A stretch of 64,000 nucleotides of DNA from an uncultured Acidobacteriota bacterium (lineage in GTDB: Bacteria; Acidobacteriota; Thermoanaerobaculia; Multivoradales; JBCCEF01), in contig CAVSQV010000003.1 in NCBI GenBank assembly GCA_963730155.1, positions 2,938,496 to 3,002,495 on the forward strand. The letters run 5' to 3'. The position numbers and the translations under genes are program-made. This document shows positions 47,278-64,000 of the stretch, piece after piece (the stretch's first letter is position 1; the number at the start of each line of letters is the position of its first letter). The notes under the pieces were generated by a model. That model had not been told where the DNA came from and ran no database searches. It saw nothing but the letters and a program-made list of their open reading frames with translations.

Positions 47278-49608
47278 ATGAACCACGAGATCTCGCACCG
47301 AGCACCGCTCCGCCCGAGGACACCGTCCCCGGGAGCAGCGCGCAACCGCCGCGCGCGCCGCACGCCGGGCGGTTGGCCGCTCGCGGCCGCGGTCGCCGCC
47401 GCGCTGGCGGCGGTGGCGGTCGCCGCTCTCGGGGCGCCGCCGGGCTGCGACGCCGCCGGCTGGAGCCACTGGCGCGGGCCGGCGCGCAACGGCACCTCGC
47501 CCGAGACCGGGCTGGTGTCGAGCTGGTCGACGGAGGGCGAGAACCTGGTCTGGCGCCAGGACTTCGTCGGCCGCTCGACGCCGGTCGTCTTTGACGGCCG
47601 GGTCTGCGCCAACGGCCGGGTCGGCGAGGGGATCTCGCGCCAGGAGATGGTCGCCTGCTTCGACGCCGGCACCGGCAAGAAGCTCTGGGAGCAGCGCTGG
47701 ACGTCTACCACACGACGGTCCCGTTCAACCGCGTGGGCTGGGCCAGCCTGGTGGGCGACCCCGAGACCGGCAACCTCTACGCCCACGGCGTCGGGGGGCT
47801 CTTCTTCTGCTTCGACCGCGCGACGGCAAGGTCGTCTGGTCGCGCGCGCTGACCGAGGAGTTCGGCTTCATCGGGCTTCGGCGGCCGCACCCACACGCCG
47901 ATGATCGACGAGGACCGGCTGATCCTCTCCTTCGTCGAGCAACTGGGGCGAGCAGGCGCCGCCGCGCACCCGCACGTTCGCCTTCGACAAGCGACGGGCG
48001 AGCTGCTCTGGGTCTCGATCCCCGGCGGCCCCGATGGCCGACAACAACTCGCAGCGACGCCGCGGTGGCGGTGGTCAACGGCCAGCGTCTGCTCATCGAG
48101 GGCAACGCCGACGGCTGGATCTATGCCATCAAGGCGCGCACCGGCGAGAAGGTCTGGAGCTTCCAGCTCACGCAAGGGCGGGATCAACATCACGGTCGCG
48201 GTCGACGGCAACACCGTCTACGCCTCCCACAGCGAGGAGAACGTCGACGCGCCGATCATGGGCCGGGTGGTGGCGATCGACGCGACCGGCACGGGCGACG
48301 TGACCAAGACCCACGAGCGGTGGCGGGCGACCGCTGGGCGTCGGGCTTCTCCTCGCCGCGTTCGCACGACGGCGACGCTCTACGTCGTCGACAACTGGCG
48401 CCAACCTCTTCGCCCTCGACGCCAAGACCGGCCGCGAGCTCTGGAAGCACAAGCTGGGGACGGTGGGCAAGGGCTCGCCGGTGCTGGGCCGACGGCAAGC
48501 TCTACGTGACCGAGGTCAACGGCCGCTTCCACATCCTGAGGCCGGCCGCGACGGCGTCCGGCCGCTCGACATCGAGAAGCTGACCATGCCCGGGAGCGGC
48601 CGCTACGCCGAGATCTACGGCTCGCCGGCGATCGCCTACGGCCGGATCTACTTCACGACCGAGGCGGGGCTCTACTGCCTGGGCGACCAGAGCCAGCCGT
48701 TCAAGGTGACCAAGGACGAGCCGGTCGAGCCCGCCGGCGAGGAGCCCGGCCGCCCGGCGCCGCGGCCGCCACGCTGCTCCAGGTGGTCCCGGCCGAGGTC
48801 CTGATCGCGCCGGGCGAGACGGTCCGCTTCCCGGTCAAGGCCTTCGACGCCCAGGGCCGCCCGCTGGCGGCCCCGCGACGCCACCTGGGCGCTCGAGGGT
48901 CTGGCCGGCACCGCTCGCCGACGGCCGCTTCACCCCGGCGGCCGGCGCACCCGCCAGGCCGGCAAGGTGGCGGCGAAGGTCGGCGGGCTGGAGCGCGACG
49001 GCGCGGGTGCGGGTCAACCCGCCGCTGCCCTGGAGCGACGACTTCGAGGCGGCGTCGAGGCGCGGCAAGACCGCCCTGGTGGATCGGCGCGGCTGCCAAG
49101 TTCCCGGTCGCCGAAGTCGGACGGCGGCAAGGTGCTGTCGAAGCCGCCGCTGCCGCGGGCCGACCGCTCCGACGTCCTGCTCGGGCCGCCGGCGCTCTCC
49201 AACTACACCATCCAGGCCGACCTGCTGGGCACCGCGCAAGGGGCGGAAGCGCCCCGACCTCGGGCTGATCAACAGCGGCTACACCTGGACCTGATGGGCG
49301 CCCACCAGAAGATCCAGCTCCGCTCCTGGCCTCGGAGCTGCGCTGGAGAAGTCGGTGCCGTTCCCGTGGGAGCCGGACGTCTGGTACACGATGAAGTTCC
49401 GGGTCGACCAGCAGGGGGACAAGGCGCTCGTGCGCGGCAAGGTGTGGCGGCGCGGCGAGCCCGAGCCGCGAGGAGTGGACGATCACGGCCGAAGACCCGC
49501 AGCCGGTCCGCCAGGGCAGCCCCGGGCATCTACGGCTACTCGGCGGCGGAGATCTACTACGACAACCTGCAGGTGACGGTGAACTCCGAGAAGGATGCGA
49601 AGGAATGA
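47278..49608 (+). pseudogene. BamB-like PQQ-repeat beta-propeller protein with a C-terminal beta-sandwich-like domain, heavily frameshifted
   Basis: The signal and N-terminus are MNHEISHRAPLRPRTPSPGAARNRRARRTPGGWPLAAAVAAALAAVAVAALG...WSHWRGPARNGTSPETGL. Propeller blades and the C-terminal domain (..PFPWEPDVWYTMKFRVDQQGDKALVRGKVWRRGEPEP...GIYGYSAAEIYYDNLQVTVN) are spread across at least 7 overlapping track ORFs in three frames. Confidence 0.6.
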
Positions 49609-51230
49609 CGTCCGATCGATCTCCGCCGCCGCGGTGCTGGCGCTGGCGGCGCTGCCGGTGACCGTCGCTGCCGAGGAACCTGCGATCGCCATGTTCGGCG
49701 GGGACCCGAGCCGCCAGACCGCTGAGGCGCCGCAAGGCGCCGAGGCGGCCTCGCGGGAGGCGCATCCGCCATGTTCGGCGGCGGCCCTCGCGCAACATGG
49801 CCTCCGCCGAGAAGGGCCTGCCCGCGAAGTGGGACCCCGAGACCGGCGCCAACATGCTCGTGGATGCCGCCGCTCGGCTCGCAGAGCCTACGGCGGCCCG
49901 GTCGTCGCCGGCGGCAAGGTCTTCGTCGGCACCAACAACGAAGGCGCCGCGCAACCCGAAGCTCGACCGGCGACCGCGGCAGTCCTGATGTGCTTCGACG
50001 CCAACGACCGGCAAGTTCCTCTGGCAGTCGGCGCACGACAAGCTCCCGGCCGGCCGCGTCAACGACTGGCCGCTCGAGGGCATCTGCTCCGGCCCCGGCG
50101 TCGAGGGCGACCGCCTCTACTACGTCAGCAACCGCTGCGAGGTCGTCTGCGCCGACGCCGAGGGCTTCCGCGACGGCAAGAACGACGGCCCGTTGACCGA
50201 CGAGACCGACGACGACCGAGACCGACGAGGACGTGGTCTGGAAGCTCGACATGATCGGCGAGCTGGACGTCTTCCCGCACAACCTGGCCGCCGGCTCCCC
50301 GCTGATCGTCGGCGACCTGCTGTTCATCGTCACCGCCAACGGCGTCGACGAGGGGCACATCAACATCCCCGCGCCGCACGCGCCGAGCTTCATCGCGGTC
50401 GACAAGAAGACCGGCAAGCTGCTGTGGGAGGACAACTCGCCGCCGGCGAGAACATCCTGCACGGCCAGTGGTCGAACCCGGCCTACGCGCGTGATCAAGC
50501 GGCAAGCCGCAGGTGATCTTCCCCGGCGGCGACGGCTGGCTCTACTCCTTCGAGCCCAAGACCGGCAAGCTGCTCTGGAAGTTCGACTGCAACCCGAAGG
50601 ACGCCGTGTACGAGCTCGGCGGCACGCGGCACCCGCAACGACTTCATCGCCACGCCGGTCGTCTACGACGACAAGGTCTACATCGGCGTCGGCCAGGACC
50701 CCGAGCACGGCGAGGGCGTCGGCCACCTGTGGTGCATCGACGCCGGCGACGGCACGGCGACGTCACCGGCAAGGCGCGTGGTCTGGCACCGCGGCGGCGA
50801 GGACTTCCACCGCACGCTCTCGACCGTGGCGATCGCCGGACGGCATCGTCTACGCCTCCGACCTCTCGGGCCACCTCTACTGCCTCGACGCCAAGACCGG
50901 CCAGCACTTCTGGACGCTACGACGCCTTCGCCGCCATCTGGGGCTCGCCCTTCGTCGCCGACGGCAAGGTCTACCTCGGCGACGAGGACGGCGACGTCGT
51001 GGTGCTGCGGGCGGGCAAGAAGAAGGAGCTCCTGCACGAGATCAACCTGGGCAGCTCGGTCTACACCACGCCGGTGGCCACGGACGGGGTCCTCTACATC
51101 ATGACCCGCGCGACGCTCTTCGCGATCGAAGGAGGGCGCGACGTGGCAGCCGGCGGCGCCGCCGGCGCCGCCGGCCGAGGCGCCGGCGCGGTGATCACCG
51201 AGGCCGGCCGACCGGCGCCCGCCCCGGCGG
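49595..51230 (+). pseudogene. Second PQQ-repeat beta-propeller protein, frameshifted
   Basis: The signal peptide is MRRNDVRSISAAAVLALAALPVTVAAEEP. Propeller segments (..[54 protein letters not shown].. ; ..[36 protein letters not shown].. ; ..[81 protein letters not shown]) alternate between frames. Confidence 0.55.
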
Positions 51231-52332
51231 CCGCGGACGCGAGCGCCCTCGCCGACCGCGTCGCCGAGGCGCGCCGCGGCTCGACGCCCACGTGCGCGAG
51301 ACGTGGCCTGGCACTTCTCGACCCGAGACCGGCAGCCCGTTCTGGCTGGAGCGGGCGCGAGGCGCTCGGCTTCGATCCGCGCGAAGGAGGTCCACGGCTA
51401 CGACGACCTCGAAGCTCTTCGGCCACTTCGAGGACTCCTGGCTGCGCGGCGGTCCGGTGCGCCGCTGGATGCCCCGGGGGCTCGCCGGCCGGCCGGTCTA
51501 CGTCTTCGAGACCGGCGGCACGACCGGGGTGCCGAAGTCGCGGGTCAACATCGAGGACTTCCAGATCGACTACGAGCGAGTTCAGCGACGCGCTGCCCGA
51601 CGAGGGCTTCCCGCCCGGGCGCCGACTGGCTGATGCTCGGGCCGACCGGCCCGCGCCGGCTGCGGCTGGCGGTCGAGCACCTGGCGCAGCACCGCGGCGG
51701 CATCTGCTTCCACGTCGACCTCGACCCGCGCTGGGTCAACCGGCTGATCAAGGACGGCCGCCTCCGCGAGCTGGAGGAGTACAAGGCCCACGTCATCGAG
51801 CCAGGGGCTGACCGTGCTCCGGGCGCACGAGATCCGCTGCCTGTTCACGACGCCGAAGCTGCTGGACGCGCTCTGCGAGCGCAGGCTCGTCTCGCCAAGC
51901 TGGGCATCCGCGGCATCTTCTGCGGCGGCACCGAGATGAACGCCGCAGTTCCACCGCTTCGCCCGCGAGGAGCTGGTGCCGGGGATCGAGTTCGTGCCGA
52001 CCTACGGCAACACGCTGATGGGGCTCGCCTGCCCGAAGCCGTTCGACCCGGCGGCGCCCGACTACACGATCACCTACTACCCGCCCGCACCGCGCGCGGT
52101 CTTCGAGCTGGTCGACCCCGACGACCCGGAGCGCGCCGGTCGAGCTACGGCGAGACCGGGCGGGTGATGCTGACCACGCTCACCCGCGAGCTTCTTCATG
52201 CCGCGCTTCCTCGGAGCGCGACGAGGGCGAGCGGGCCGAGCCGATCGAGCGCTATCCCGTGGGACGGCGTGACGCAACCTGCGGCTCTTCTCGCGGCTGG
52301 CCGAGATTCGGTGGTCGGTCGGGGTGTATTAG
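51230..52332 (+). pseudogene. LuxE/PaaK-family adenylate-forming enzyme (acyl-protein synthetase or phenylacetate-CoA-ligase-like), frameshifted
   Basis: Segments in three frames: ..[54 protein letters not shown] (adenylation P-loop-like TGGTTG-PK); ..[74 protein letters not shown]; ..QFHRFAREELVPGIEFVPTYGNTLMGLACPKPFDPAAPDYTITYYPPAPRAVFELVDPDDPER. Confidence 0.55.
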
Positions 52333-52343
52333 ATGACGGTCCG

Positions 52344-53856
52344 ATGCTTCCCCTCCTGCTCCGCGGCGGACGCCCCTACCGCAGCCTGGAGGCGCGACCT
52401 CCTGCGCGACGCCGCGACGGGCGAGCCGGTGGCCGAGGTCGCCAGGCCGAACCCGGGGCTCATCGCGAAGCGATCTGCCCGAGCGATCGGCGCGGCGCGC
52501 CGGACGCTCGCCGCGCTCCCCGCCGCCGAGCTGCTCGCGATCTGCCGCCGGGCGGCCCGCCTCTTCGCCGAGGCCGAGCTGCCGCCGGCGACGGCGTCCA
52601 GGGCTCGGACGACTACGTCCGCCAGCTCTCGGCGACCTCCGGCCTGCCGGAGACCCTCTGCCGGCTCAACATGGAGAAGATCCGCACCGTGCTCGCCGGC
52701 ATGGAGGCGGTGCTCGCCGGGCTGACGCGGGGGCTCGACCTCTCGGTCCTCGACTCCGGCTGGGCGGAGGACGGACGGCCGGATCGTCTCCTTCCGCGCC
52801 GCAGACCGACGCCCTGGGCGCGGTCCTGCCCAGCAACTCGCCGGGCGTCCACAACCTCTGGCTGCCGGCGCCGGCGCTCAAGATCCCGGTGGCGCTCAAG
52901 CCCGGGCGCGAGGAGCCGTGGACGCCGTTCCGGATCGGCCAGGCGCTGATCGCCGCCGGCCTGCCCGCCCGGGCGCTCTCGGCTTCTACCCGGCCGACCA
53001 CGGCGGGCGCCGCCGAGATCCTGCTGCGCTGCGGCCGGTCGCTGCTCTTCGGCGACGAGTCCACGGTGCGCCCCTGGGAAGGCGATCCGCGGGTGCAGAT
53101 CCACGGCCCGGGCTGGAGCAAGGTGCTCTTCGGCGAGGACCAGGCTCGCCCACTGGGAGAGCCATCTCGACCTCCTCGTGCCGGTCGATCGCCGACAACG
53201 GCGGCCGCTCGTGCCTCAACGCCTCGGGCGTCTGGGTGCCGAAGCCGGCGGCGGCGGCAACGGCCTCGGCCGCAGGCTCGCCGAGGCGCTCGCGCGCCGG
53301 CTGGCCGCGATCGAGGCGCTGCCGCTCGACCATCCCGAGGCGCGGCTCGCCGCGTTCCCGCGATCCCGCAGGCGGCGCATCAGATCTCCGACACTGATCG
53401 ACCGCCAGCTCCGCCTCCGCGGCGCCGTCGATCTGACCGCGGCGATCCGCGGCCGCGCCGGGTGGCCGAGGCCGGCGGCTGCACGTTCCTGCTGCCGACG
53501 CTCATCTGGTGCGAGGACCCCGACCACCCGCTCGCCAACACCGAGCTGCTGTTCCCCTTCGCCTCGCGTCGTCGAGGTCCGCAGGACGAGATGCTCGCGC
53601 GGATCGGCCCGACGCTCGTCGGCCACCGCGCTCACCGACGGACCCCGCCTTCGAGCGCGAGCTGCTCGACTGCCCGCGCGATCGACCGGCTGAACCTGGG
53701 GCCGGTCCCGGCGCGGTGCCGACCTCCCGCGTGTCCTGGGACCAGCCGCACGAGGGGAACCTCTTCGAGCACCTCTACCGCCACCGCGCGCTCGGCGGGC
53801 CGGCGCTGACGGCGGGTGCGGCACGGCCGGCGGTTGCCGCGGGAGCGCCGGCATGA
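52344..53856 (+). pseudogene. LuxC-like acyl-CoA reductase (aldehyde-dehydrogenase-fold), frameshifted
   Basis: Segments: ..DYVRQLSATSGLPETLCRLNMEKIRTVLAGMEAVLAGLTRGLDLSVLDSGWAEDGR ; ..LGAVLPSNSPGVHNLWLPAPALKIPVALKPGREEPWTPFRIGQALIAAGLPARALSFYPADHGG ; ..AEILLRCGRSLLFGDESTVRPWEGDPRVQIHGPGWSKVLFGED ; ..SIADNGGRSCLNASGVWVP ; C-terminus ..NLGPVPTSRVSWDQPHEGNLFEHLYRHRALGGPA. Its stop overlaps the next gene's ATG (ATGA). Confidence 0.5.
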
Positions 53857-55121
53857 GCGCCGTCGCCCGGCTCACCTCCGGTCCGACCGGCGGGCACGAG
53901 CCGGCCTCGCTCCAGGCGGGGATGACCCCTTCCGGCACCGCGCGCTGGCGCGCCCGGTGGGCGCGATCGAGGTCTCGTTCGGCGCCGGCACGGCGGCCTC
54001 GCTCGGGGAGCTGGTGCGCGCCGTCGCACCGGACGCCTCCCGCGCGCTGGTGGTCACCGATCCCGGGGTGCGCGCCGCCGGCCACGCCGAGGCCGCCGCT
54101 CGCCGCGCTCGCCGAGGCCGGCTCGAGACCGCGATGTTCGACGGCGTCGGCGAGAACCCGACCACCGAGCGAGGTCGACGCCGGCGCCGCCTTCGCCGCG
54201 CCGTTCGCGCCCGACCTGCGTCGTCGGCCTCGGCGGCGGCAGCGCGATCGACTGCGCCAAGGGGATCAACTTCCTGCTCACCAACGGCGGCCGGATGGAG
54301 GACTACCGGGGCGCGGCAAGGCGCGGCTGCCGATGCTGCCGTCGATCGGCGTGCCGACCACCGCCGGCACCGGCAGCGAGGCCCAGTCCTACGCCCTGAT
54401 CTCGCACGCCGAGGACCCACCGAGAAGATGGCCTGCGGCGACGACAAGGCGCGCTTCCGCGCGGTGGTGCTCGACCCGCGCGCTCGCCGCGACCGCGCCG
54501 CGCCGGGTCGCGGCCGCGGCGGGGATCGACGCGGTGTCGCACGCGGTCGAGAGCCACGGTGACCACGGCGCGGCAACCCGGTGTCGCGGATGCTCTCGCG
54601 CGAGGCCTGGCGCCTGCTCGACGGCGCGCTGCCCGCGGCGCTCGCCTCGCGCGGCGAGGACCTCGGCGAGGATCTCGACGCGATCGGCCGCATGCTCTTG
54701 GGCGCCCACCTCGCCGGCGCCGCGATCGAGCACTCGATGCTCGGCGCCGCCCACGCCTGCGCCAATCCGCTGACCGCCCGCTTCGGCGTCGACGCACGGC
54801 GTGGCGGTCGGCCTGATGCTCCCCCACGTCGTCCGCTTCAACGCCGCCGTCGCGGCCGAGGGCTACGCCGAGCTGGCCGACGCGGCCGGCCTCGACGCCG
54901 GCGCCGAAGGCGCCGGCCCGGCGGCCGCGCTGGCGCGCCGGATCGAGGGGCTGCGCGCCGCCGCCGGCCTCCCCGGCCGGCTCGCCGAGGTCGGCGTTTC
55001 GGCGCGCGCGCTGGCGGAGCTGGCCGCCGACGCAGCCACGCCAGTGGACGCGGCAGGTTCAACCCGCGGCCGCGTCTCCGAGTGCCGACTTCCTGAGGCT
55101 GCTAGTGAATCCGCGCTCTAG
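53853..55121 (+). pseudogene. Iron-containing (group III) alcohol dehydrogenase, frameshifted
   Basis: Segments: ..[60 protein letters not shown] ; ..[31 protein letters not shown] ; ..[31 protein letters not shown] ; ..AAGIDAVSHAVESH ; C-terminus ..AHACANPLTARFGVDA..GVAVGLMLPHVVRFNA. Confidence 0.65.
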
Positions 55122-55129
55122 CTGCCTCG

Positions 55130-56249
55130 CCGCCGCTGCTCCTCACGCTCGCCGCCGCCCGCCGCGGCCGACTGGACCGCGCTTCCGCGGCGATGCCCGG
55201 ACATCGCCGGCCGCGCCGACTGCCGCGCTGCCGGCCGAAGCCCGAGCTGAAGCTGGACGCTTCGAGGCCGAAGCGGGCTTCGTCGTCGACCGCGGCGATC
55301 GTCGGACGGCACGGTCTACGCCGCCTCGCTCGACGGCCAGCTCTACGCCCTCGACCTCGCGACCGGCAAGCAGCGCTGGAAGCTACGAGGCCGGCGACGA
55401 GATCAAGTCGTCGCCCGGTCGTGTTGGCAGGACGGTGGCGGACGGTCTACTTCGGCGACGAGACGGGCAAGCTCCACGCCGTCGACGCCGCGACCGGCAA
55501 GGCGCGCTGGATCTTCACCGCCGACGGCCGGGATCATCTCCTCGGCCAACTTCGCGCCGGCGACTGCATCCTGTTCGGCTCCTACGACAACCGCCTCTAC
55601 TGCCTGCGGCCGGAGAGCGGCAAGGCCGTCTGGAAGGTCGAGACCGACGGCTACGTCCACGGCACGCCGGCGATCGCCGGCGGCGACACGCTGGTCGCCG
55701 GCTGCGACGGCTTCCTGCGCCGTGGTGCGCCTGGCCGACGGCAAGGAGGTCGCGACAGGTCGAGCTCGGCGGCTACGCCGCGGCGAGCCCGGCGGTCGCC
55801 GGCGGCCGCGCCTTCGTCGGCACCTTCGAGAACCAGGTCCTGGCGGTCGACCTCGAGACGGGCGCGCTCGCCTGGCGCTACGAGCACCCGGTGCGCAAGT
55901 TCCCGTTCTACGCCTCGGCGGCGATCGCGGCGAGGGGACGGGTCGCTGGAGGACGGTGCGTGGTCATCGTCGGCGGCCGCGACAAGATGGTCCACGCCCT
56001 CGACGCCGCCGACGGCGCCGAGCGCTGGACCTGGTCCGCCGGCGCGCGCGGTCGACGCCTCGCCGGTGGTCGCCGGCGGCCGGGTGCTGGCGGCGACCAC
56101 AGGGCGGGGTGCTCGTCGCGCTCGACCTCGCGACCGGCGAGCCGTCGTGGCGCTTCGACGCCGGCGCCCCGTTCGACGCCTCGCCGGCGGTCGCCGCCGG
56201 CCGGCTGGTGATCGGCGACGCGGACGGCATCCTCTACTGTTTCGGCTAG
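55130..56249 (+). pseudogene. Third PQQ-repeat beta-propeller protein (short, ~370 aa), frameshifted
   Basis: Segments: ..VYAASLDGQLYALDLATGKQRWK ; ..TVYFGDETGKLHAVDAATGKARWIFTADGRDHLLGQ..ILFGSYDNRLYCLRPESGKAVWKVETDGYVHGTPAIAGGDTLVAGCDGFLR ; ..AFVGTFENQVLAVDLETGALAWRYEHP..VVIVGGRDKMVHALDAADGAERWTW ; end ..VLVALDLATGEPSWRFDAGAPFDASPAVAAGRLVIGDADGILYCFG. Confidence 0.55.
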
Positions 56250-56339
56250 GGGCCCAACCACGCGGCCGCGAACCCCGTACCTCACACCGAGAACCCACCA
56301 CCCGGCGACGCGCCCGAACCACGACCCGCGAAAGGCCTC

Positions 56340-57738
56340 ATGAGCCGTACCGACACCGCGACCCTCGAACCGCACGCCGCCGCCCCCTCCCCGAGCCGGC
56401 CACCGCCGGCCAGAGCTCCGAGGACACCGAGGTCGGCAGCGTCTTCGTCTCCAACTACCCGCCGTACTCGGCGTGGAGCCCGGAGGCGGTGGCCGCGGTC
56501 GAGCGCCGGCTCGCCGCGCCGGCCCCGGATCCGGCGACGCCGCTCGGCCTCTACCTCCACATCCCGTTCTGCCGCAAGCGCTGCAAGTTCTGCTACTTCC
56601 GCGTCTACACCGACAAGAACTCGGGCGAGATCGGCCGCTACCTCGACGCCCTGGCGCGCGAGGTCGAGCTCTGGCGCCGAGCGGCCCGCGATCGCCGGCC
56701 GGCCGCTCCGCTTCGTCTACTTCGGCGGCGGCACGCCGTCTTACATCAGCGTCCGCCAGCTCGAGGAGCTGTTCGGCCGCGTGCGCGCCGCGTTCTCCTG
56801 GGACCGGCGCCGAGGAGGTCACCTTCGAGTGCGAGCCGGGGACCCTCACCGAGTCCAAGCTCGAGGCGATCCGCGAGCATCGGCGTCACCCGCCTGTCGC
56901 TCGGCATCGAGAGCTTCGACGACGAGATCCTGCGCGAGAACGGCCGCGCCCACGTCTCGACGGAGATCTACCGCGTGCCTGCCGTGGATCCGCGAGCTCG
57001 GCTTCGACCAGCTCAACGTCGACCTGATCGCCGGCATGGTCGGCGAGACCTGGGAGACCTGGAAGGCGACCGTCGAGCGGACGCTCGAGGTCGAGCCCGA
57101 CAGCGTCACCGTCTATCAGATGGAGCTGCCGTTCAACGACCGTCTACTCGAAGGACGTCCTGGCCGGGAGCTTCGAGCGCCCGCTCGCCACCTGGGCCGA
57201 CAAGCGCGCCTGGCACGACTAGGCCTTCGAGCGCTTCGAGGCGGCCGGCTACGAGGTGTCGAGCGCCTACACCGTGGTGAAGAGGAAGCCCGGCGACGCC
57301 GGCAGCCGCTTCGTCTACCGCGACGCGGTCTGGCACGGCAGCGACCTGCTGGGCACCGGGGTCGCCTCGTTCTCCCACTTCCGCGGCGTCCACTTCCAGA
57401 ACGAAGCGGGCTGGGTTCCGTATCTGGACTCCGTGGAAGCCGGCCGCCTGCCTCTAGCCCGCGCCTTCGAGGCCGCCCCCGAGGACCTGCTGCGCCGTGA
57501 GCTGATCCTCCAGATGAAGCTCGGCCGGGTCGAGGCGGCGCCGTTCGCGGAGAAGTTCGGCGTCGACGTGCTGGAGCGCTTCGCCCCCGCCCTCGAGCGG
57601 CTCGAGCGCCGCGGCATGCTCGCGCTCGACCGGACCGGCGGCGGCCGCATCGAGCTGTCTCGCGACGGGCTGCTGCAGGTCGACACCCTGCTGCCCGAGC
57701 TGTACGACGAGCGCTACCGCAAGGGGCGCTACACCTAG
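56340..57738 (+). pseudogene. HemN/HemW-like radical SAM enzyme (oxygen-independent coproporphyrinogen-III oxidase family), with frameshifts and an in-frame TAG
   Basis: The radical SAM CX3CX2C motif is LYLHIPFCRKRCKFCYF. Further segments: ..RFVYFGGGTPSYISVRQLEELFGRVRAAFSWDR ; ..[47 protein letters not shown] ; ..LNVDLIAGMVGETWETWKATVERTLEVEPDSVTVYQMELPFN ; ..WADKRAWHD-TAG-AFERFEAAGYEVSSAYTVV (in-frame TAG at 57220-57222) ; C-terminus ..LERFAPALERLERRGMLALDRTGGGRIELSRDGLLQVDTLLPELY. Confidence 0.7.
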
Positions 57739-57811: not shown

Positions 57812-59116
57812 ATGATGACCGCGATCCGCCCAGCCCTCGCCTCCGCCAGCTTCAAGCCCGCCGCCCGCGCTCCGTTCGTCGCTGCCGCTGTCCTTCTCGC
57901 CGCCGCCGCGCTGGCGCTGCCGGCCGCCGCGCCGGCCGCCGACTGGCCGATGTTCCGCGGCCCGGGCGCCTCCGGCGTCTCCCCCGAGACCGGCCTCCTC
58001 GCCGCCTGGCCCGCGGCCGGCCCGTCCGAGGTCTGGCGCGTGCCGCTCGGCGAGGGCTACTCCGGGCTCTCGGTGGTCGGCGGCCGGATGTACACGCTCT
58101 ACGCCGACGCCCAGGACGAGCTGGTGGTCGCGCTCGACGCCGCCACCGGCAAGGAGCTGTGGCGCTACCGGCTCGACGCCAAGTACTTCGACGGCCAGGG
58201 CAACGGCCCGCGCTCGACGCCGACGGTCGAGGGCGGCACCGTCTTCGCCTACGGCGCGCGCGCCAAGCTCGCCGCGCTCGACGCCGAGAGCGGCCGGCTC
58301 TTGTGGAGCCAGGACCTGAAGAAGTCGTTCGGCGCCCGCCCGCCGCAGTGGGCGGTCTCGACCTCGCCGCGGGTCTGGGGCGACCTCCTCTTGGTCGACG
58401 CCGGCGGCCGCGAGGGCGCCTCGATCGTCGCCCTCGACAAGCGCAGCGGCGTGGTCAAGTGGACCGCCGGCACCGACGTCCAGGGCTACTCGACGCCGCT
58501 GGTGATCGCGGTCGGCGGCAAGGACGTCGCGGTCTTCTTCACCGGCAGCAAGATCGTCGGCCTCGATCCCGCCGGCGGCGAGATCCACTGGTCGCTCGGC
58601 TGGGAGACCAGCTACGACGTCAACGCCGCGACGCCGGTCTTCGTGCCGCCCGACCGGGTCTTCCTCTCCTCCGGCTACGGCGTCGGCGCGGTGATGCTGG
58701 AGGTGACCGCCAAGGGGGGCAAGACCGCGGCGACCGAGGTCTGGCGCAGCAAGGGGATGAAGAACCAGTTCTCGACCTCGGTCTACCACGCCGGCCACCT
58801 CTACGGCTTCGACGACTCGATCCTGAAGTGCCTCGACGCCGCGACCGGCGAGGAGAAGTGGAAGGCGCGCGGCTTCGGCCACGGCTCGCTGATGCTCGCC
58901 GACGGCCGGCTCTACGTCCTCTCCGACCGCGGCACGCTGGCGCTGGTCGAGGCGACGGCGGAGAGCTACAAGGAGGTCGCCCGCTTCGAGCCCCTCGACG
59001 GAAAATGCTGGACGATGCCGACGGTCGCCGGCGGCAAGCTCTTCGTGCGCAACGAGAAGGTGGTGGCGGCCTACGATGTCGCTGGGGGTGGGGAGGTGGA
59101 CCGTGCGTCGCGTTGA
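57812..59116 (+). CDS. BamB-like PQQ-repeat beta-propeller protein (intact)
   Basis: 434 aa. The signal peptide is MMTAIRPALASASFKPAARAPFVAAAVLLAAAALALPAAAPAA. The N-terminal motif is DWPMFRGPGASGVSPETGLLAAWP. Repeated blades follow (..GGRMYTLYADAQDELVVALDAATGKELWR.. ; ..VFAYGARAKLAALDAESGRLLWS.. ; ..HLYGFDDSILKCLDAATGEEKWK..DGRLYVLSDRGTLALVEA..KLFVRNEKVVAAYDV). Confidence 0.8.
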   Translation: MMTAIRPALASASFKPAARAPFVAAAVLLAAAALALPAAAPAADWPMFRGPGASGVSPETGLLAAWPAAGPSEVWRVPLGEGYSGLSVVGGRMYTLYADAQDELVVALDAATGKELWRYRLDAKYFDGQGNGPRSTPTVEGGTVFAYGARAKLAALDAESGRLLWSQDLKKSFGARPPQWAVSTSPRVWGDLLLVDAGGREGASIVALDKRSGVVKWTAGTDVQGYSTPLVIAVGGKDVAVFFTGSKIVGLDPAGGEIHWSLGWETSYDVNAATPVFVPPDRVFLSSGYGVGAVMLEVTAKGGKTAATEVWRSKGMKNQFSTSVYHAGHLYGFDDSILKCLDAATGEEKWKARGFGHGSLMLADGRLYVLSDRGTLALVEATAESYKEVARFEPLDGKCWTMPTVAGGKLFVRNEKVVAAYDVAGGGEVDRASR

Positions 59117-61301
59117 GACCCTGGCCTTCGGTTTCGGACTGCTGCTCTTCGCCGCCGCGCCCACGCTCGCCCAGGACGCGGAACCGCAGGAGGCGCCCGC
59201 GGCGACGCAGCCGGCCGGCCCCGAGGACGAGGCGGCCGATCCGACCTACCTCTTCGGCGACGAGGTCGAGGTGAAGGGCGAGCTGCCCTGGATCCCGTCG
59301 TCGAACACCGTCGCCGCCAAGCTCCCGCTGCCACTGCGCGAGACCCCGGCGAGCGTCTCGGTGATCCCGGGGCCGCTCCTCGCCGAGCAGGGGGCGAGGA
59401 TCCTCGGCGACGCGCTCGAGAACGTCTCCGGGCTCGGCGTCCACACCGGCAGCGGGGTGTTCGACTTCTTCGTCGTCCGCGGCCTCGACTCGGTGTCCTC
59501 CGGGCTGATTCTTTCCGACGGCGCACCCGAGCTCGAGACCACCTTCTACCAGCTCTACAACGTCGAGCGCGTCGAGGTCTTCAAGGGGCCGACCTCGTTC
59601 CTCTACGGCGGCGGCCCGCTCGCCGGCACCGTCAACCTGGTGCGCAAGCAGCCGTCGCCCGGCACCTTCGGCCGGGTCACCGCCGGCGCCGGCAGCTTCG
59701 ACACCTACGAGGCGACCGCGGACGTCAACGCCGGCTCGAAGGACGGCGCGCTGTCGTTCCGGGTCAACGGCCTCTGGCGGCAGTCCGACGGCTTCCGCGA
59801 CGGCCGCGAGAGCGACCTCGCGGCGCTCAACCCGGCGCTGACCTTCCGGCCGAGCGAGAGCTGGTCGCTCAACCTGAACGTCGAGCGGATCGACGCCGAG
59901 TACCTCTCGGACAACGGCCTGCCGCTCTTGTTCGACCAGCAGGGCGCGGCGACCATCGTCCCGGACGTGCCGCGCGAGCGCTCCTACCAGTCGCCGTTCG
60001 ACCTCTCCGACCAGGCGATCGACCGCGCCCAGCTCGACTGGGAGGCGATCGTGTCGCCGAACCTCCTGGTGCGCGACAAGGCCTACTGGCGGAGCATGGA
60101 GTGGGACTCGAAGGCGACCGCGTTCAGCGGCGTCGTGCCGATCCCGGTCCTCGGCGACCAGGTGATCCGCAACCTCCTGATGCTCGACGACGAGCAGGAG
60201 TTCCTGGGCAACCAGCTCGAGGCGATCGCGAGCCTGGGCGACGACTTCGTAACCCACGAGATCCTGTTCGGCGTCGAGGCGGTCCGCTACACCGACCGCT
60301 TCGGCTTCGATGTCGCCTTCCTCCCCCTGATCGGCCTCGACGACCCGGTCGAGACCGCGCCCGGCTCGATCGACCTCCTGCCGCGGATCCCCGGGCAGGC
60401 GCTCGGGGCCGACGCCGAGGTGACGACCATCGCCCCCTACGTGGTCGACCAGATCCGGATCGGCGAGCGCTTCACCGTCCTCGCCGGCGCGCGCTGGGAC
60501 ACGGTCGACTTCGAGGACGCCTTGGCCGGCACCCGGCGCGACGACGACGAGCTGTCGCCGATGCTCGGCGCGGTCTGGGCGCCGCGGGCGGAGACCTCGA
60601 TCTATGCCAACTACGCCGAAGCGTTCTCGCCGCCCTCGACCTTCACCCCGGCCGAGGACCGGGTGCCCGAGGACAGCGAACAGGCCGAGGCCGGGGTCAA
60701 GACCGCCCTCTTCGACGGCCGCGCCGAGGCGACCCTGGCGGCGTTCCGGATCGACCGCACCGGGGTCGCGATCCCCGATGCGACCGGCGTCGTACGCCAG
60801 ATCGGCGACCAGCGCTCGCAGGGGCTCGAGGCCGAGCTGCGCGGCACGGTCGGCGGCGACCGGCCGGCCTGGGTCTCGCGCCTGCGCTACCTGTTCGCCT
60901 ATGCCTACACCGACAGCGAGCTGACCGAGTACCGCGAGCAGCAGTTCCTCCTGGTGCCGCCGTTCGTGGTGGTGCGCGACTTCTCGGGCAACGACGCCCC
61001 GTTCACCCCGGCGCACACAGCGAGCCTCTGGCTCTCGACCACCCTGCCGCACGACGTCGGGCTCGGCGCCGGCGCGCGCTGGGTCTCCGACCAGTACATC
61101 GACGAGGACAACGCGTTCGCGATCGACGGCTACGCCACGCTCTCGGCGTCGGCGACCTGGGGCCGCGAACTCTGGCGCCTGCGCCTCAACCTCGACAACC
61201 TGACCGGCGAGGAGTACCTGACCCGCGGCTTCGGCGGCTTCTCGGTGATCCCGGCGCCGGGGTTCGCGGCGACGGCGCGGGTCGAGGTGGGGCTGTTTTG
61301 A
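59076..61301 (+). CDS. TonB-dependent receptor (siderophore or small-substrate type)
   Basis: 741 aa. Signal peptide and plug (..VSVIPGPLLAEQGARILGDALENVSGLGVHTG..VFKGPTSFLYGGGPLAGTVNLVRKQP). The barrel ends ..ARVEVGLF. An alternative GTG start at 59103 would reduce the overlap with the upstream gene to 14 nt. Confidence 0.85.
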   Translation: MSLGVGRWTVRRVETLAFGFGLLLFAAAPTLAQDAEPQEAPAATQPAGPEDEAADPTYLFGDEVEVKGELPWIPSSNTVAAKLPLPLRETPASVSVIPGPLLAEQGARILGDALENVSGLGVHTGSGVFDFFVVRGLDSVSSGLILSDGAPELETTFYQLYNVERVEVFKGPTSFLYGGGPLAGTVNLVRKQPSPGTFGRVTAGAGSFDTYEATADVNAGSKDGALSFRVNGLWRQSDGFRDGRESDLAALNPALTFRPSESWSLNLNVERIDAEYLSDNGLPLLFDQQGAATIVPDVPRERSYQSPFDLSDQAIDRAQLDWEAIVSPNLLVRDKAYWRSMEWDSKATAFSGVVPIPVLGDQVIRNLLMLDDEQEFLGNQLEAIASLGDDFVTHEILFGVEAVRYTDRFGFDVAFLPLIGLDDPVETAPGSIDLLPRIPGQALGADAEVTTIAPYVVDQIRIGERFTVLAGARWDTVDFEDALAGTRRDDDELSPMLGAVWAPRAETSIYANYAEAFSPPSTFTPAEDRVPEDSEQAEAGVKTALFDGRAEATLAAFRIDRTGVAIPDATGVVRQIGDQRSQGLEAELRGTVGGDRPAWVSRLRYLFAYAYTDSELTEYREQQFLLVPPFVVVRDFSGNDAPFTPAHTASLWLSTTLPHDVGLGAGARWVSDQYIDEDNAFAIDGYATLSASATWGRELWRLRLNLDNLTGEEYLTRGFGGFSVIPAPGFAATARVEVGLF

Positions 61302-62578
61302 GCGATCGCACCTGGGACGCGGTGGTGATCGGCGGCGGCCCGGCCGGCGCCACCGCGGCGACCCTGGTCGCCCTCCGCGGCCGCTCGGTGCTCCTGCTCG
61401 AGAAGGCGCCCGGGCCGCAGCTCAAGGTCGGTGAGTCGCTGATGCCGGCGACCTACTGGACCCTCGAGCGGCTGGGCATGCTCGAACGGATGCGGGCGAG
61501 CGACTTCCCGCGCAAGTACAGCGTCCAGTTCTACACCCGCGGCGGCCGCGCCTCGGCGCCGTTCTACTTCTTCGAGACCGACCCCGAGGAGTCCTCCCAG
61601 ACCTGGCAGGTGCTGCGGAGCGACTTCGACCGCCTGCTGCTCGAGAACGCCGCCGAGAAGGGGGTCGAGGTGCGCTTCGGCTCGGCGGTCGAGGCGGTGC
61701 GCTTCGAGCGCGGGGAGGAAGGCGAGGAGCCCCGCGCGGTCGGCGTGCGCGCCGCGATCGACGGCGGCGAGGTTCGCGACGTCGACGCCCGGGTGGTGAT
61801 CGACGCCAGCGGCCAGCGGGCGCTGATCTCCCGCTCGATGGGGCTCAAGGAGGACGACCCGCGGCTCCGCCACGCCGCCTACTGGAGCCACTTCAAGGGC
61901 GCCCGCCGCGATCCCGGGATCGACGAGGGGGCGACCCTGGTGCTGCGCACCGAGAGCCCGCGCAACTGGTTCTGGTTCATCCCGCTCCCGGGCGAGCGGA
62001 CCTCGATCGGGGTGGTCGGGCCGGTCGAGGACCTGGTTGACGGCGGCGACCCGGAGGCGGTCTTCGCGCGCGAGCTGGCGCGCTGCCCGGCGCTCGCCGA
62101 GCGGATGGCCGGGGCCGAGATGCTGATGCCGGTGCGGGTCGCCCGCGACTACTCGTACCTGAGCAGCCGGGTCGGCGGCAACGGCTGGGTGCTCGCCGGC
62201 GACGCCTTCGGCTTCCTCGACCCGCTCTACTCCTCGGGGGTGTTCCTGGCCCTGGAGTCGGGGGCGATGGCCGCCGACGCGGTGATCGACGCGCTCGACG
62301 CCGGCGACCTCTCGGCCGCGCGCCTCAACGCCCACGGCGAGCGCTACGCCGACGGCATCCGCGCGATCCGCCGGCTGGTCTACGCCTTCTACGACCCGGA
62401 GTTCAGCTTCGGCCGCTTCCTCGAGCGCTTCCCGGACCAGCGCCCCGGCATCGTCGACCTCCTGACCGGCAACGTCTTCCGCAAGCCCTACGAGGAGACC
62501 CTGGCGGCGCTCGACCTCTTCGCCGCCGAGCGCAGCGCCGCGGCGGTCGAGACCGCGGAGGCGGAGGCGCGCCGGTGA
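61298..62578 (+). CDS. Flavin-dependent halogenase-family protein (FAD-binding, WxWxIP motif)
   Basis: TTG start overlapping the TonB-receptor stop (TTGA). GxGxxG is WDAVVIGGGPAGATAA. The conserved Lys context is LKVGESLMP. The WxWxIP motif is SPRNWFWFIPLPGE. The second FAD motif is ..GWVLAGDAFGFLDPLYSSGV. Confidence 0.75.
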   Translation: MSDRTWDAVVIGGGPAGATAATLVALRGRSVLLLEKAPGPQLKVGESLMPATYWTLERLGMLERMRASDFPRKYSVQFYTRGGRASAPFYFFETDPEESSQTWQVLRSDFDRLLLENAAEKGVEVRFGSAVEAVRFERGEEGEEPRAVGVRAAIDGGEVRDVDARVVIDASGQRALISRSMGLKEDDPRLRHAAYWSHFKGARRDPGIDEGATLVLRTESPRNWFWFIPLPGERTSIGVVGPVEDLVDGGDPEAVFARELARCPALAERMAGAEMLMPVRVARDYSYLSSRVGGNGWVLAGDAFGFLDPLYSSGVFLALESGAMAADAVIDALDAGDLSAARLNAHGERYADGIRAIRRLVYAFYDPEFSFGRFLERFPDQRPGIVDLLTGNVFRKPYEETLAALDLFAAERSAAAVETAEAEARR

Positions 62579-62838
62579 GGGCGGCGCGGCAGGCGGCCGC
62601 GGCGGCGACCGCGGACGCGACGGCGCCGGCCCGGCACGGCGCGGCCTGGTTCTACCTCGGGCTCGGGCTGCTCTTCGCCCTTCATCACGACTTCTGGTTC
62701 TGGGACCGGCCGCGGCTGGTGCTCGGGCTCCCCGCCGGGCTCCTCTACCACGTCCTCTACTGCGTCGCCGCGGCGGGGCTGATGGCGTTCGCGGTGCGCC
62801 GCGCCTGGCCGCCGCCGGGCCTCGGCGACGGCGGCTGA
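62575..62838 (+). CDS. DUF3311-like small membrane protein (accessory to the sodium:solute symporter)
   Basis: GTG start overlapping the halogenase stop (GTGA). Two TM helices (WFYLGLGLLFALHHDFWFWDRPRLVLGLPAGLLYHVLYCVAAAGLMAFAV). Its position directly upstream of the symporter is typical. Confidence 0.6.
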   Translation: MRAARQAAAAATADATAPARHGAAWFYLGLGLLFALHHDFWFWDRPRLVLGLPAGLLYHVLYCVAAAGLMAFAVRRAWPPPGLGDGG

Positions 62839-62866
62839 TCCCACGAACGGGGCGGGGGGAGCAGCC

Positions 62867-64000
62867 GTGATCGAGGCCGTGGTCGGGGTCTATCTCGCGC
62901 TGGTGCTGGCGATCGGCTTCCTCGCCCGGCGCCGGCTCGCGGCCACCGGCGACGACTACTTCACCGCCAGCCGCACGATCGGGCCGGTGATCCTGCTCGC
63001 GACGCTCTTCGGCACCCACATGACCGCGTTCAGCCTGCTCGGCGCCTCGGGCGAGGCCTACCACCGCGGCGTCGGCGTCTTCAGCCTGATGGCGTCGTCC
63101 TCCGCCCTGGTGGTGCCGGCGGTCTTCTACTTCGTCGCCCCGCGCGTCTGGACGGTGTGCCGGCGCGGCGGCTTCCTGACCCAGGTCGAGCTGGTGGCCG
63201 CGCGCTGGGGCAGCCCGGCGCTGGCGCTGGCGGTGGGCGGGGCGCTGGTCGCGCTCCTCCTCCCCTACCTGGTGATCGGGATGATGGGCGGCGGCATCAC
63301 GATCACCGAGATCACCCGCGGCCGGGTGCCGGAGTGGGCCGGGGGGCTGGTGATCGCCGGCGTGGTGTTCGCCTACGTCGCCGCCGGCGGCGTGCGCGGC
63401 ACCTCGTGGGTCAACACCTTCCAGACCGTGGTCTTCGTCGTCCTCGGCGCGGTCACCGCCGGCGTGGTGATCGTGAAAGCCGGCGGCCTCGACGTGCTGG
63501 CCTCGCGGGTCGCCCCCGCGCTCCTGGTCCACGGCGACCGCGTGCCGCCGCTCGAGCTGCTCTCCTACGCGCTGATCCCGCTCTCGGCCGGCACCTTCCC
63601 GCACATCTTCACCCACTGGCTGAGCGCGCGCGGCCCCGAGACCTTCAAGCTGCCGATCGTCGCCTACCCGCTGTGCCTCGCCGCGGTGTGGCTGCCGAGC
63701 GTCCTGGTCGGCGTGCTGGCGAGCGCCGACCTCCCCGGCCTCGAGGGCCCGGCCGCCAACTCGGTGCTGATCCGGGCGATCGACCTCCACGCTCCCGGCG
63801 TCCTCACGGGCCTCCTGGCCGCCGGCATCTTCGCCGCGGTGATGAACTCGCTCGACAGCCAGGCCCTGGCGCTGTCGTCGATGGTCACCCGCGGCCTCGG
63901 AGCCCGCTCTCCCGCGGCCACGGCCTCCGCGGCCGCCGGCCGTCGCCAGCTCTTCGCCGGGCGCCTGTTCGTCGCCGCCGTCCTGGTCCTCACCTACGCC
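62867..64000 (+). CDS. Sodium:solute symporter (SSF) family transporter, 3'-truncated by the window end
   Basis: RBS ggcgggggga then GTG. The protein begins VIEAVVGVYLALVLAIGFLARRRLAATGDDYFTASRTIGPVILLATLFGTHMTAFSLLGASGEAY. The ORF is open to the window end at 64000. It is not in the track because it has no stop inside the window. Confidence 0.75.
   Translation, partial: MIEAVVGVYLALVLAIGFLARRRLAATGDDYFTASRTIGPVILLATLFGTHMTAFSLLGASGEAYHRGVGVFSLMASSSALVVPAVFYFVAPRVWTVCRRGGFLTQVELVAARWGSPALALAVGGALVALLLPYLVIGMMGGGITITEITRGRVPEWAGGLVIAGVVFAYVAAGGVRGTSWVNTFQTVVFVVLGAVTAGVVIVKAGGLDVLASRVAPALLVHGDRVPPLELLSYALIPLSAGTFPHIFTHWLSARGPETFKLPIVAYPLCLAAVWLPSVLVGVLASADLPGLEGPAANSVLIRAIDLHAPGVLTGLLAAGIFAAVMNSLDSQALALSSMVTRGLGARSPAATASAAAGRRQLFAGRLFVAAVLVLTYA

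Follow-up and report, generated by a model that had tools for sequence, protein, structure and literature searches.

What is an array of twelve genes for that joins four exported beta-propeller proteins to a predicted carboxylate-reduction module, a HemN-like radical S-adenosylmethionine (SAM) enzyme, a flavin-dependent halogenase, a TonB-dependent receptor and a sodium:solute symporter? The question is raised by the right-hand end of a 64,000-nucleotide stretch of contig CAVSQV010000003.1 from an uncultured Acidobacteriota bacterium (the whole of this stretch is referred to here as the window), in which the array runs from position 47,278 to the last base. A sequence-only reading of the window had proposed that these genes form one functional cluster of an undescribed kind. 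Our answer has two parts of different strength. Sequence comparisons indicate that the twelve genes are one operon, conserved across many bacterial phyla; and we suggest tentatively, as something rather short of an even chance, that it serves to take up a probably aromatic carboxylate, by TonB-dependent and sodium-coupled steps, and then to tailor it reductively. Every protein belongs to a known superfamily, and there is no named system that combines these parts.

The window has a G+C content of 69–77%, which makes a plain list of open reading frames (ORFs) uninformative, and strand and frame were therefore called from a frame plot of G+C content at third codon positions (GC3) and Viterbi segmentation over the coding frames. 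Both show coding on the plus strand without interruption from about 47.3 kb to the window end, as had been claimed. The first seven genes (G1–G7) are not intact ORFs in the window; their frame shifts were located by frameshift-aware alignment of intact proteins from a related locus, L001, with the window DNA. Stitched translations of G1–G7, direct translations of G8–G12 and intact orthologues were scanned against Pfam, NCBIfam and the sequences of the PDB. The genes are the following.

G1, 47,278–49,608, plus strand: exported PQQ_2/BamB-like propeller of about 740 aa (PQQ_A); Pfam PQQ_2 98.9 bits; frameshifted, with an uncertain exact start and a stop at 49,606–49,608.
G2, 49,605–51,194, plus strand: exported PQQ_2 propeller of about 517 aa (PQQ_B); Pfam PQQ_2 90 bits; frameshifted.
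G3, 51,191–52,332, plus strand: EhpF-like adenylating enzyme of the ANL superfamily of acyl-CoA synthetases, non-ribosomal peptide synthetase adenylation domains and luciferases, about 362 aa; Pfam AMP-binding 32 bits; frameshifted.
G4, 52,344–53,856, plus strand: EhpG-like thioester reductase of the aldehyde dehydrogenase (ALDH) superfamily, about 480–505 aa; Pfam Aldedh 19–28 bits; frameshifted.
G5, 53,853–55,096, plus strand: iron-containing alcohol dehydrogenase (Fe-ADH); Pfam Fe-ADH 139 bits, ADH_Fe_C 90 bits; frameshifted, with an approximate 3′ end.
G6, 55,100–56,249, plus strand: exported propeller of about 374 aa (PQQ_C); Beta-prop_ACSF4 157.6 bits (cut-off 133), PQQ_2 156 bits; frameshifted, with an approximate 5′ end and a stop at 56,247–56,249.
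G7, 56,340–57,738, plus strand: HemN-like radical SAM enzyme; Radical_SAM 85.7 bits, HemN_C 34.5 bits.
G8, 57,812–59,116, plus strand: exported PQQ_2 propeller of 434 aa (PQQ_D), intact and in a clean frame; Pfam PQQ_2 146 bits.
G9, 59,076–61,301, plus strand: TonB-dependent receptor of siderophore/catecholate type, intact; plug 71 bits, barrel 169 bits; start at ATG 59,076 or possibly at GTG 59,103.
G10, 61,298–62,578, plus strand: flavin-dependent halogenase of CndH/PltA/Bmp2 type, intact, TTG start; Trp_halogenase 80.3 bits (cut-off 21).
G11, 62,575–62,838, plus strand: small DUF3311 membrane protein of 87 aa, GTG start; Pfam DUF3311 29.2 bits (cut-off 30).
G12, 62,867–64,000, plus strand: sodium:solute symporter, cut by the window end; SSF 74.8 bits, TIGR00813 81.8 bits.

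There are several reasons to regard these genes as a unit. First, they are tightly packed, with start–stop overlaps at six junctions of the array. These are ATGA at G1/G2 (49,605–49,608), GTGA at G2/G3 (51,191–51,194), ATGA at G4/G5 (53,853–53,856), TTGA at G9/G10 (61,298–61,301), GTGA at G10/G11 (62,575–62,578), and at G8/G9 an overlap of 14 nt if the receptor starts at GTG 59,103 or 41 nt if it starts at ATG 59,076. All of the overlaps claimed beforehand (ATGA, TTGA, GTGA and the 14–41 nt between propeller and receptor) can be read in the sequence, and those at G1/G2 and G2/G3 come in addition. The gap between G7 and G8 is 73 nt, and the GTG start of the symporter at 62,867 lies 28 nt past the DUF3311 stop without overlapping it, preceded by the ribosome-binding stretch GGGGGGAG. 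Second, no terminator-like site was found in any intergenic gap of the array. Third, the arrangement recurs elsewhere. In L001, on an independent contig, all twelve genes are intact and in the same order with gaps of 0–46 nt, and the same twelve-gene order is intact in a 5.9-Mb Thermoanaerobaculaceae genome. L001, L002/L005, L018, L036 and L075 have the full order, 'Acidobacteria bacterium Mor1', Latescibacterota and Gemmatimonadota have it slightly altered, and large parts of it are found in Latescibacterota, Gemmatimonadota, Poribacteria, Planctomycetota and Armatimonadota; counted at species level, dozens of genomes in several phyla have it largely intact. Conservation of the neighbourhood across phyla had been set as a test beforehand, and with the order recurring in several of them the array indeed behaves as a single conserved cluster.

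The breadth of this distribution is clearest for the EhpG-like protein. A search of 1.84 billion representative proteins returned 303 clusters at E ≤ 1e-30, a word-indexed search more than 7,700 homologues, and the gene is present in at least 599 species-representative genomes. Within Acidobacteriota the carriers include Thermoanaerobaculia, Blastocatellia, Pyrinomonadaceae, Bryobacteraceae and 'Acidobacteria bacterium Mor1'; elsewhere they belong to Poribacteria, Latescibacterota, Gemmatimonadota, Planctomycetota, Verrucomicrobiota, Armatimonadota and, with one genome, KSB1, at least eight phyla overall. The twelve L001 proteins were mapped onto 80 loci, and the following counts refer to the 49 of these whose sequence extends 8 kb or more to both sides of the EhpG-like gene; the receptor and the halogenase are undercounted, since both lie near the flank limit.

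EhpF-like gene beside the EhpG-like gene: 38 of 49 loci.
Any propeller gene near the EhpG-like gene: 37 of 49 loci.
Fe-ADH gene near the EhpG-like gene: 34 of 49 loci.
Radical SAM gene near the EhpG-like gene: 25 of 49 loci.
Halogenase gene near the EhpG-like gene: 13 of 49 loci.
TonB receptor gene near the EhpG-like gene: 12 of 49 loci.

Reduced and enlarged versions also occur. Verrucomicrobiota and some Planctomycetota keep only the EhpG-like and Fe-ADH genes, and Blastocatellia and KSB1 only the EhpF-like and EhpG-like pair. One Phycisphaeraceae locus has an extra 4HBT thioesterase gene. In L014 (17,175–18,443) and L031 (18,657–19,934) a gene of the PaaK-like phenylacetate-CoA-ligase family (422–425 aa, Pfam) stands between receptor and halogenase, and a gap of equal size suggests the same insertion in L028 and L069; the lineages concerned are Latescibacterota and Gemmatimonadota, and the window has no such gene.

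Which chemistry the array encodes depends first on G3 and G4, and here the original assignment has to be replaced. All twelve domain families that had been named were matched by the searches except LuxE and LuxC. The LuxE model (PF04443) has no match to stitched G3, nor to the intact L001 orthologue at E ≤ 10, and the LuxC model (PF05893) none to stitched G4 (E ≤ 0.01) or to the intact orthologue P0016 (E ≤ 10); in stitched and intact proteins alike only AMP-binding and Aldedh match. There is a resemblance to bacterial luminescence, in which an ATP-dependent activator of about 370 aa and an ALDH-fold reductase of about 480 aa likewise lead to an aldehyde, but besides the unmatched Pfam models there is no luxD or luxAB in the window cluster. 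None of the NCBIfam models matches the EhpF-like or EhpG-like proteins, and no curated model names these or DUF3311. From their alignments, G3 and G4 are best described as very divergent members of the ANL and ALDH superfamilies, of EhpF/EhpG type.

The evidence for this type is as follows. The intact G3 orthologue matches the EhpF structures 3L2K/3HGU over residues 22–362 of 362 (E 4.9e-49) and is 33% identical end to end to Pantoea EhpF (E 6e-52). The two proteins are of similar length (362 and 366 aa), the alignments reach a common C-terminal GVY, and a Pfam scan of the G3 orthologue found no AMP-binding_C domain; with the same short length as EhpF, G3 is thus of a type that lacks the usual ANL C-terminal domain. 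EhpF itself is termed an atypical ANL adenylating enzyme in the title of a paper cited in PMC3175449. The G4 type is 26% identical to Pantoea EhpG (E 5e-30), with the invariant cysteine of its GGRSC motif aligned to that of GGAAC in EhpG; this residue, C298, is unchanged in 15 EhpG-like orthologues. The EhpF-like gene lies directly upstream of the EhpG-like gene in the window, in L001, in the 38 loci counted above and on Pantoea pASB05p2, and in Pantoea phenazine clusters and plasmids ehpF and ehpG adjoin and overlap, the protein encoded right after ehpF being that of ehpG (PMC11278526).

The adjacent pair in the same order, and the proposed conversion of a carboxylate into an aldehyde via an acyl-adenylate, thus recall the D-alanylgriseoluteic acid (phenazine) pathway of Pantoea agglomerans. 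The differences are that sequence identity is low, that the window cluster contains no phz genes, and that its pair is accompanied by Fe-ADH, propellers, importers, radical SAM enzyme and halogenase. Bera et al. are said to have proposed in 2010 that EhpF and EhpG turn phenazine-1,6-dicarboxylate into the 6-formyl compound via an adenylate, reportedly on the basis of structure and genetics and not of reconstituted activity.

A second line of evidence comes from gene fusions. Three proteins (P0363, P0379 and P0362) are single chains of 856–872 aa in which an EhpG-like domain is joined to an Fe-ADH; the G5 orthologue scores about 170 bits against Fe-ADH structures. This is reminiscent of AdhE, which reduces a thioester to the aldehyde and then to the alcohol, and in which an ALDH-fold thioester reductase likewise precedes an Fe-ADH. 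In contrast to AdhE, the window has separate genes, and its ALDH is of EhpG type and would be fed by an adenylating enzyme, not by acyl-CoA. Taken together, the EhpF/EhpG homology and the natural fusions support the chemistry that had been suggested (adenylation, reduction to an aldehyde, reduction to an alcohol), which thus probably stands, on a different family assignment.

The remaining enzymes and transporters (radical SAM, halogenase, TonB receptor, DUF3311 and symporter) pass profile searches as originally assigned, DUF3311 being borderline in the window. G7 carries the CxxxCxxC motif as CRKRCKFC, together with GGGTP. It is not HemN proper (TIGR00538), against which it scores 189–193 bits with a cut-off of 325, and it also falls below the NCBIfam equivalog cut-offs for HemW (135–157 versus 205) and ChuW/HutW (TIGR04107; 167–178 versus 400) and below those for HemZ and the STM4012 family. 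Among proteins of solved structure, its relatives are HemN (1OLT, 140 bits) and the methyltransferase NocN (112 bits).

G10 retains the sequence motifs of flavin-dependent halogenases. Its best PDB matches are 8ZOP (224 bits), CndH (186 bits) and PltA (160 bits). The FAD motif GxGxxG (as GGGPAG) and the motif GDAxxFxDPxxSxG are each kept in the window and in 16 of 16 orthologues checked, and WxWxIP is present as WFWFIP in the window and as W[FV]W[YF]IP in 17 of 17 sequences. K73 aligns to CndH K76 and PltA K73, the catalytic lysines, whose numbers are consistent with the chain numbering, and lies in a K[YHE]SVQF motif that the window shares with all nine orthologues compared at the N-terminus. 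A lysine before IGES was considered for the catalytic role and rejected, as it is variable (K/Q/R/C/H) and the alignment with CndH and PltA points to the later, invariant one. Fold, FAD motif, catalytic lysine and WxWxIP are shared with the variant-B halogenases (CndH, PltA, Bmp2, CmlS); unlike these, G10 has no carrier protein or flavin reductase nearby, and it sits in an importer operon spread over many phyla, not in a lineage-specific natural-product cluster. A recorded protein, P0241, is identical to the window halogenase (61,298–62,578).

The claim that the array includes four exported propellers proved correct: intact orthologues of all four carry signal peptides, and the translation of G8 shows an N-terminal signal sequence in the window itself. 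An AlphaFold2 model of G1 (743 aa, predicted local distance difference test score 87) predicts an eight-bladed propeller with two C-terminal beta-sandwich domains, and the best PDB fold matches of this model are BamB and the cofactor-less tetrathionate hydrolase. PQQ_A is strongly conserved, with 57–87% identity among its 120 best hits. The four propellers are not true pyrroloquinoline quinone (PQQ) quinoproteins, for they score 37–85 bits with cut-offs of 480 (TIGR03075) and 833 (TIGR03074).

The only transporters of the cluster are the TonB receptor and the symporter, both from importer families. G9 scores 247.3 bits against the TonB-dependent siderophore receptor model TIGR01783 (cut-off 223.5) and ends in GLF, so that the C-terminal phenylalanine is present; its nearest solved structures, at about 120 bits, are the siderophore receptors 5NEC and 5FP1 (presumably PiuA and PirA) and the catecholate receptor Fiu. 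The DUF3311 gene lies directly upstream of the SSF permease gene, a pair arrangement, and PF11755 is on record for the G11 orthologues in L001 and L087. The symporter is about 497 aa long in L087. The idea that it imports halide for the halogenase is unsupported, since it scores 25 bits against the sodium/iodide cotransporter and 56 against vSGLT, all of them weak matches. TonB-dependent utilisation loci (siderophore piracy, carbohydrate TonB-dependent receptors) likewise unite in one operon a receptor of the outer membrane, proteins of the periplasm, an importer of the inner membrane and enzymes of the cytoplasm. The window differs in that it has no glycoside hydrolases, SusD, ABC transporter or periplasmic binding protein, in that its periplasmic parts are four BamB-like propellers, and in that its cytoplasmic chemistry would be reductive and radical. 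The locus is described here as a putative TonB-receptor-linked utilisation or tailoring locus with unusual enzymology.

With gene identities, motifs, export signals, operon-like packing, synteny, the EhpF/EhpG homology and the fusions as its basis, the following route can be pictured. A siderophore/catecholate-type TonB-dependent receptor would move a compound that is scarce or bulky through the outer membrane, and the four exported BamB/tetrathionate-hydrolase-like propellers would bind or process it in the periplasm. The DUF3311 protein and the sodium:solute symporter would then import the carboxylate that results, probably an aromatic or heteroaromatic one. In the cytoplasm the EhpF-like enzyme would adenylate its carboxyl group; the EhpG-like ALDH-fold enzyme would load the acyl group on its conserved cysteine and reduce it to an aldehyde, and the iron alcohol dehydrogenase would turn this into an alcohol. 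Finally, the HemN-like, class-C-type radical SAM enzyme and the flavin-dependent halogenase may modify the same scaffold. We infer uptake rather than export, and every catalytic step, from this gene content. The route of uptake and transformation is favoured by the importer-type transporters, the lack of an exporter or synthase (neither an efflux pump nor a scaffold-building synthase was found in any locus inspected), the wide distribution and the high conservation.

That the substrate is aromatic is suggested by five hints. First, the substrate of EhpF/EhpG is reportedly a phenazine dicarboxylate. Second, the closest halogenases have pyrrole or phenol rings as their substrates. Third, NocN, a PDB match of G7, represents radical SAM enzymes that methylate aromatic carbons. 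Fourth, the catecholate receptor Fiu is among the closest structures to the receptor. Fifth, in some lineages a PaaK-like aryl-acid ligase is encoded beside the halogenase, or a 4HBT thioesterase has been added.

Several points weigh against an uptake route of this kind. No catalytic or binding site was identified in the propellers. The cluster encodes no flavin reductase to act as partner of the halogenase, although such reductases are often encoded elsewhere. Conversion of an imported acid into an alcohol is an unusual direction for catabolism. The EhpG-like gene accompanied by only EhpF or Fe-ADH, without propellers or transporters, in several phyla indicates that the full set is not obligatory, and the divergence of G8–G12 from L001 and L002, far greater than that of the genes to the left, leaves room for separate module histories. 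With its halogenase, class-C-like radical SAM enzyme and carboxylate reductase, the enzyme set itself is of a kind typical for the tailoring of natural products, and related clusters are read as biosynthetic in a preprint (Loureiro et al., bioRxiv 10.64898/2026.08.03.742642, August 2026).

This last point leads to the alternative that survives best, namely that the array is an orphan biosynthetic cluster whose enzymes build or tailor a small halogenated metabolite, with the receptor taking the product up again, as for a metallophore, or conferring resistance. We consider this possible, if clearly short of probable. According to the preprint, the sponge 'Halo_AMP' clusters, with a halogenase and an AMP-binding protein, are orphan biosynthetic clusters, no function being demonstrated there. 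The window contains the pair that defines them, a Trp_halogenase (G10, 80 bits) with a nearby AMP-binding protein (G3, 32.1 bits, cut-off 29.9) about 9 kb away, and the preprint notes that such clusters often contain PQQ-like, TonB and radical SAM genes, with Acidobacteriota, Latescibacterota and Poribacteria as hosts. That the halogenase keeps all its catalytic motifs, and that EhpF and EhpG are themselves biosynthetic enzymes, fits a biosynthetic role as well. The likeness has bounds, taken from the text of the preprint alone: its focus cluster, CC A, has cytochrome P450s that are absent from the window cluster, its scope is sponges only, and the module of EhpF, EhpG and Fe-ADH is not recognised in the text compared. 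It seems difficult, moreover, to reconcile biosynthesis with a lack of any non-ribosomal peptide synthetase, polyketide synthase, cyclodipeptide synthase, precursor peptide or exporter in the loci inspected, or with two transporters from importer families; and occurrence in at least 599 species of at least eight phyla, with PQQ_A conserved at the level given above, would be unusual for a specialised-metabolite cluster. As to novelty, a literature search on combinations of the gene names brought up nothing on this architecture beyond the 2026 preprint. The term 'undescribed' therefore holds in so far as no named system or function was found, and needs qualifying in that related Halo_AMP clusters have been catalogued in that preprint.

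A less likely explanation, in our view an unlikely one, is that two or three separate modules lie in conserved synteny without a shared pathway, one of them consisting of propellers and the acid-to-alcohol set and another of receptor, halogenase and symporter. TonB receptor–halogenase pairs are a recurring neighbourhood in Proteobacteria, which would accord with a separate right-hand module. In several phyla the sole partner of the EhpG-like gene is either EhpF or Fe-ADH, and in L004 and L006 the left-hand module has no receptor or halogenase within 10 kb. The right-hand genes of the window, at 45–60% identity to other loci, are also less similar to their counterparts than the left-hand genes, at 62–84% to L001. 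Nonetheless, the two halves are joined in the window by the G8/G9 overlap and the short G7–G8 gap with no terminator between them; in L021 and L051, which lack receptor and PQQ_D, the radical SAM gene is nevertheless followed by halogenase and symporter; and the full order recurs in different phyla.

On the divergence itself, we note that after correction the left-hand genes are 62–84% identical to both L001 and L002, that the right-hand values apply to the fourth propeller, receptor, halogenase and symporter in the other loci compared, and that L001 and L002 are 66–83% identical to each other in these right-hand genes. The pattern may reflect module exchange or faster evolution.

A more far-reaching idea, which we hold to be rather improbable and slightly more so than separate modules, is that of a near-housekeeping pathway of Acidobacteriota and their allies, in which halogenase, radical SAM enzyme and carboxylate reductase would operate outside secondary metabolism. 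They would either carry out a cryptic halogenation of an imported aromatic acid or make a new cofactor for the four cofactor-less propellers.

A cofactor is also central to the next alternative, a maturation system in which the cytoplasmic enzymes would supply the four secreted propellers with a cofactor, either a small molecule or one derived from a protein, by analogy with QhpD/QhpG of quinohemoprotein amine dehydrogenase. The propellers are tightly linked to the cytoplasmic enzymes across phyla, are strongly conserved and lie far under the cut-offs for true PQQ dehydrogenases, and the halogenase-like protein scores 130 bits against the QhpG model and also matches the tryptophan-modifying maturases LodB and GoxB. 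That QhpG score is, however, under the model's cut-off of 240, and the flavoprotein scores higher against true halogenases and keeps their WxWxIP and catalytic lysine. With a radical SAM enzyme that is HemN-like and not of SPASM type, no cofactor exporter, and EhpF/EhpG-like pairs without propellers in several phyla, such a system appears very doubtful.

A haem or tetrapyrrole acquisition locus, with TonB-dependent uptake and ring opening by a ChuW/HutW-like radical SAM enzyme, can be set aside as having scarcely any likelihood, for although G7 matches the ChuW/HutW model over its full length at 167–178 bits and the receptor is close by, that score is far under 400 and on a par with those of the HemN and STM4012-family models, the receptor matches the model for siderophore receptors (247 bits) but falls short of the haem models (87 versus 317), and no haem-binding or haem-shuttle genes are present.

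Finally, seven consecutive genes with 110 frame shifts and a nonsense codon could be taken for a decaying pseudogene array of this organism, the frame shifts being real mutations. The stretch concerned is the following.

47,385–57,220, strand not applicable: error-laden assembly stretch with 110 frame shifts and one TGG-to-TAG change.

The frameshift-aware alignment to L001 places the 110 shifts (76 of +1 nt and 34 of −1 nt) between 47,385 and 57,138, including 25 in G1, 19 in G2, 18 in G3 and 16 in G4, and none in the last five genes (57.2–64 kb); the coding frame switches every 60–200 nt from 47.4 to 57.1 kb and is clean from 57.2 kb onward. Between the shifts GC3 periodicity holds at 0.85–1.0, and the seven corrected proteins are 62–84% identical to L001 (74% for G1 and G2, 84% for G3, 79% for G4) with only one extra stop. 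The radical SAM gene has an in-frame TAG at 57,220–57,222, 80 nt beyond the last frame shift, at a site that is TGG (Trp) in L087 and His in L001; it is probably a substitution error, in which case the error zone would reach at least 57,222.

L087 is a close relative (its halogenase is 93% identical) that overlaps the last 0.6 kb of the affected zone and is intact there. Within the 1.16 kb that it shares with the window, DNA identity is 90.9% on the affected side and 93.0% on the clean side. Aligned to L087, G7 shows five 1-nt insertions and the change of TGG to TAG, and all five events checked against L087 DNA are single-base insertions outside homopolymers; indel positions show no homopolymer enrichment, within the imprecise placement of events by dynamic programming, and the error zones are depleted in homopolymers of at least 5 nt. 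Two like zones lie on the minus strand, at 27,368–31,640 over a resistance-nodulation-division (RND) efflux pair (membrane fusion protein and AcrB-like pump) and at 37,390–39,491 over a sigma-54-dependent activator with GAF domains, and outside its three zones the window is clean. The zones have sharp borders, and on the right the present one ends within gene 7 and not at a gene boundary.

The excess of insertions (two to one, opposite to bacterial gene decay, which is biased to deletions), the random contexts, the sharp borders, the kept periodicity and the same defect in unrelated genes all favour an assembly error. On these sequence features the frame shifts most likely mark poorly polished stretches of a long-read or hybrid assembly and not gene decay, which, with L087 intact across the overlap, we regard as highly improbable; profile annotation of the stretch fails mainly because of about 1% indels in discrete assembly zones. 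A chimeric join at about 57.14 kb, suspected because identity to L001 drops there from 62–84% to 52–57%, was rejected since L087 is close on both sides and since the C-terminal halves of the radical SAM enzymes are less conserved in every pair compared.

Gene 1 is the left border of the cluster, since the genes before it have no relation to the array (Ada, P-type ATPase, Na/Ca exchanger, ExbD and a DUF433 plus PIN toxin–antitoxin pair), in agreement with left neighbours that differ among the related loci. Immediately upstream of gene 1 lies the following stretch.

46,889–47,277, no strand assigned: stretch upstream of the array, with no match to an Rfam family and no sigma-70-like or terminator match.

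This had been described as a 390-bp leader. It does precede gene 1; its first 140 nt or so, however, have strong GC3 periodicity of the minus strand, and a small minus-strand ORF may end there. The periodic stretch extends over about 46,876–47,030, with a translation that ends in a hydrophobic, membrane-like segment, and given such an ORF the true non-coding leader may be about 250 nt. A riboswitch or other known RNA in the leader was rejected, as the window and six related loci have no Rfam match at gathering score except in L018. There, at 12,682–12,727 in the gap between Fe-ADH and the third propeller, Acido-Lenti-1 scores 39.2 bits (gathering score 37); the motif is absent from the window and the five other loci searched with Rfam. 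The DUF433 and PIN-like pair (45,739–46,888) lies directly upstream of the leader and has a lower GC3 than its surroundings; toxin–antitoxin genes near halogenase clusters are remarked on in the text of bioRxiv 10.64898/2026.08.03.742642.

At the right-hand side, the cluster may run on beyond the window end at 64,000. In L087 (7,835–12,769) and L021 (12,131–13,432), both from Thermoanaerobaculia, the symporter gene is followed by one for a family-4 glycosyltransferase; in L087 the two genes share a start–stop overlap of 4 nt, and the next protein, of at least 1,156 aa, has no Pfam domain.

The array is thus a tightly packed orphan operon carried by hundreds of species, most of them uncultured, and its phyla, eight or more in number, are abundant in soils, sediments and sponges. 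A context that contains importers is unusual for a halogenase, a HemN-like radical SAM enzyme and a carboxylate reductase of EhpF/EhpG type. Solving the operon could reveal a new route for the transformation of a nutrient or xenobiotic, or a source of natural organohalogens, and could provide a carboxylic acid reductase of two proteins for practical use, or explain what the common BamB-like 'PQQ' propellers do.

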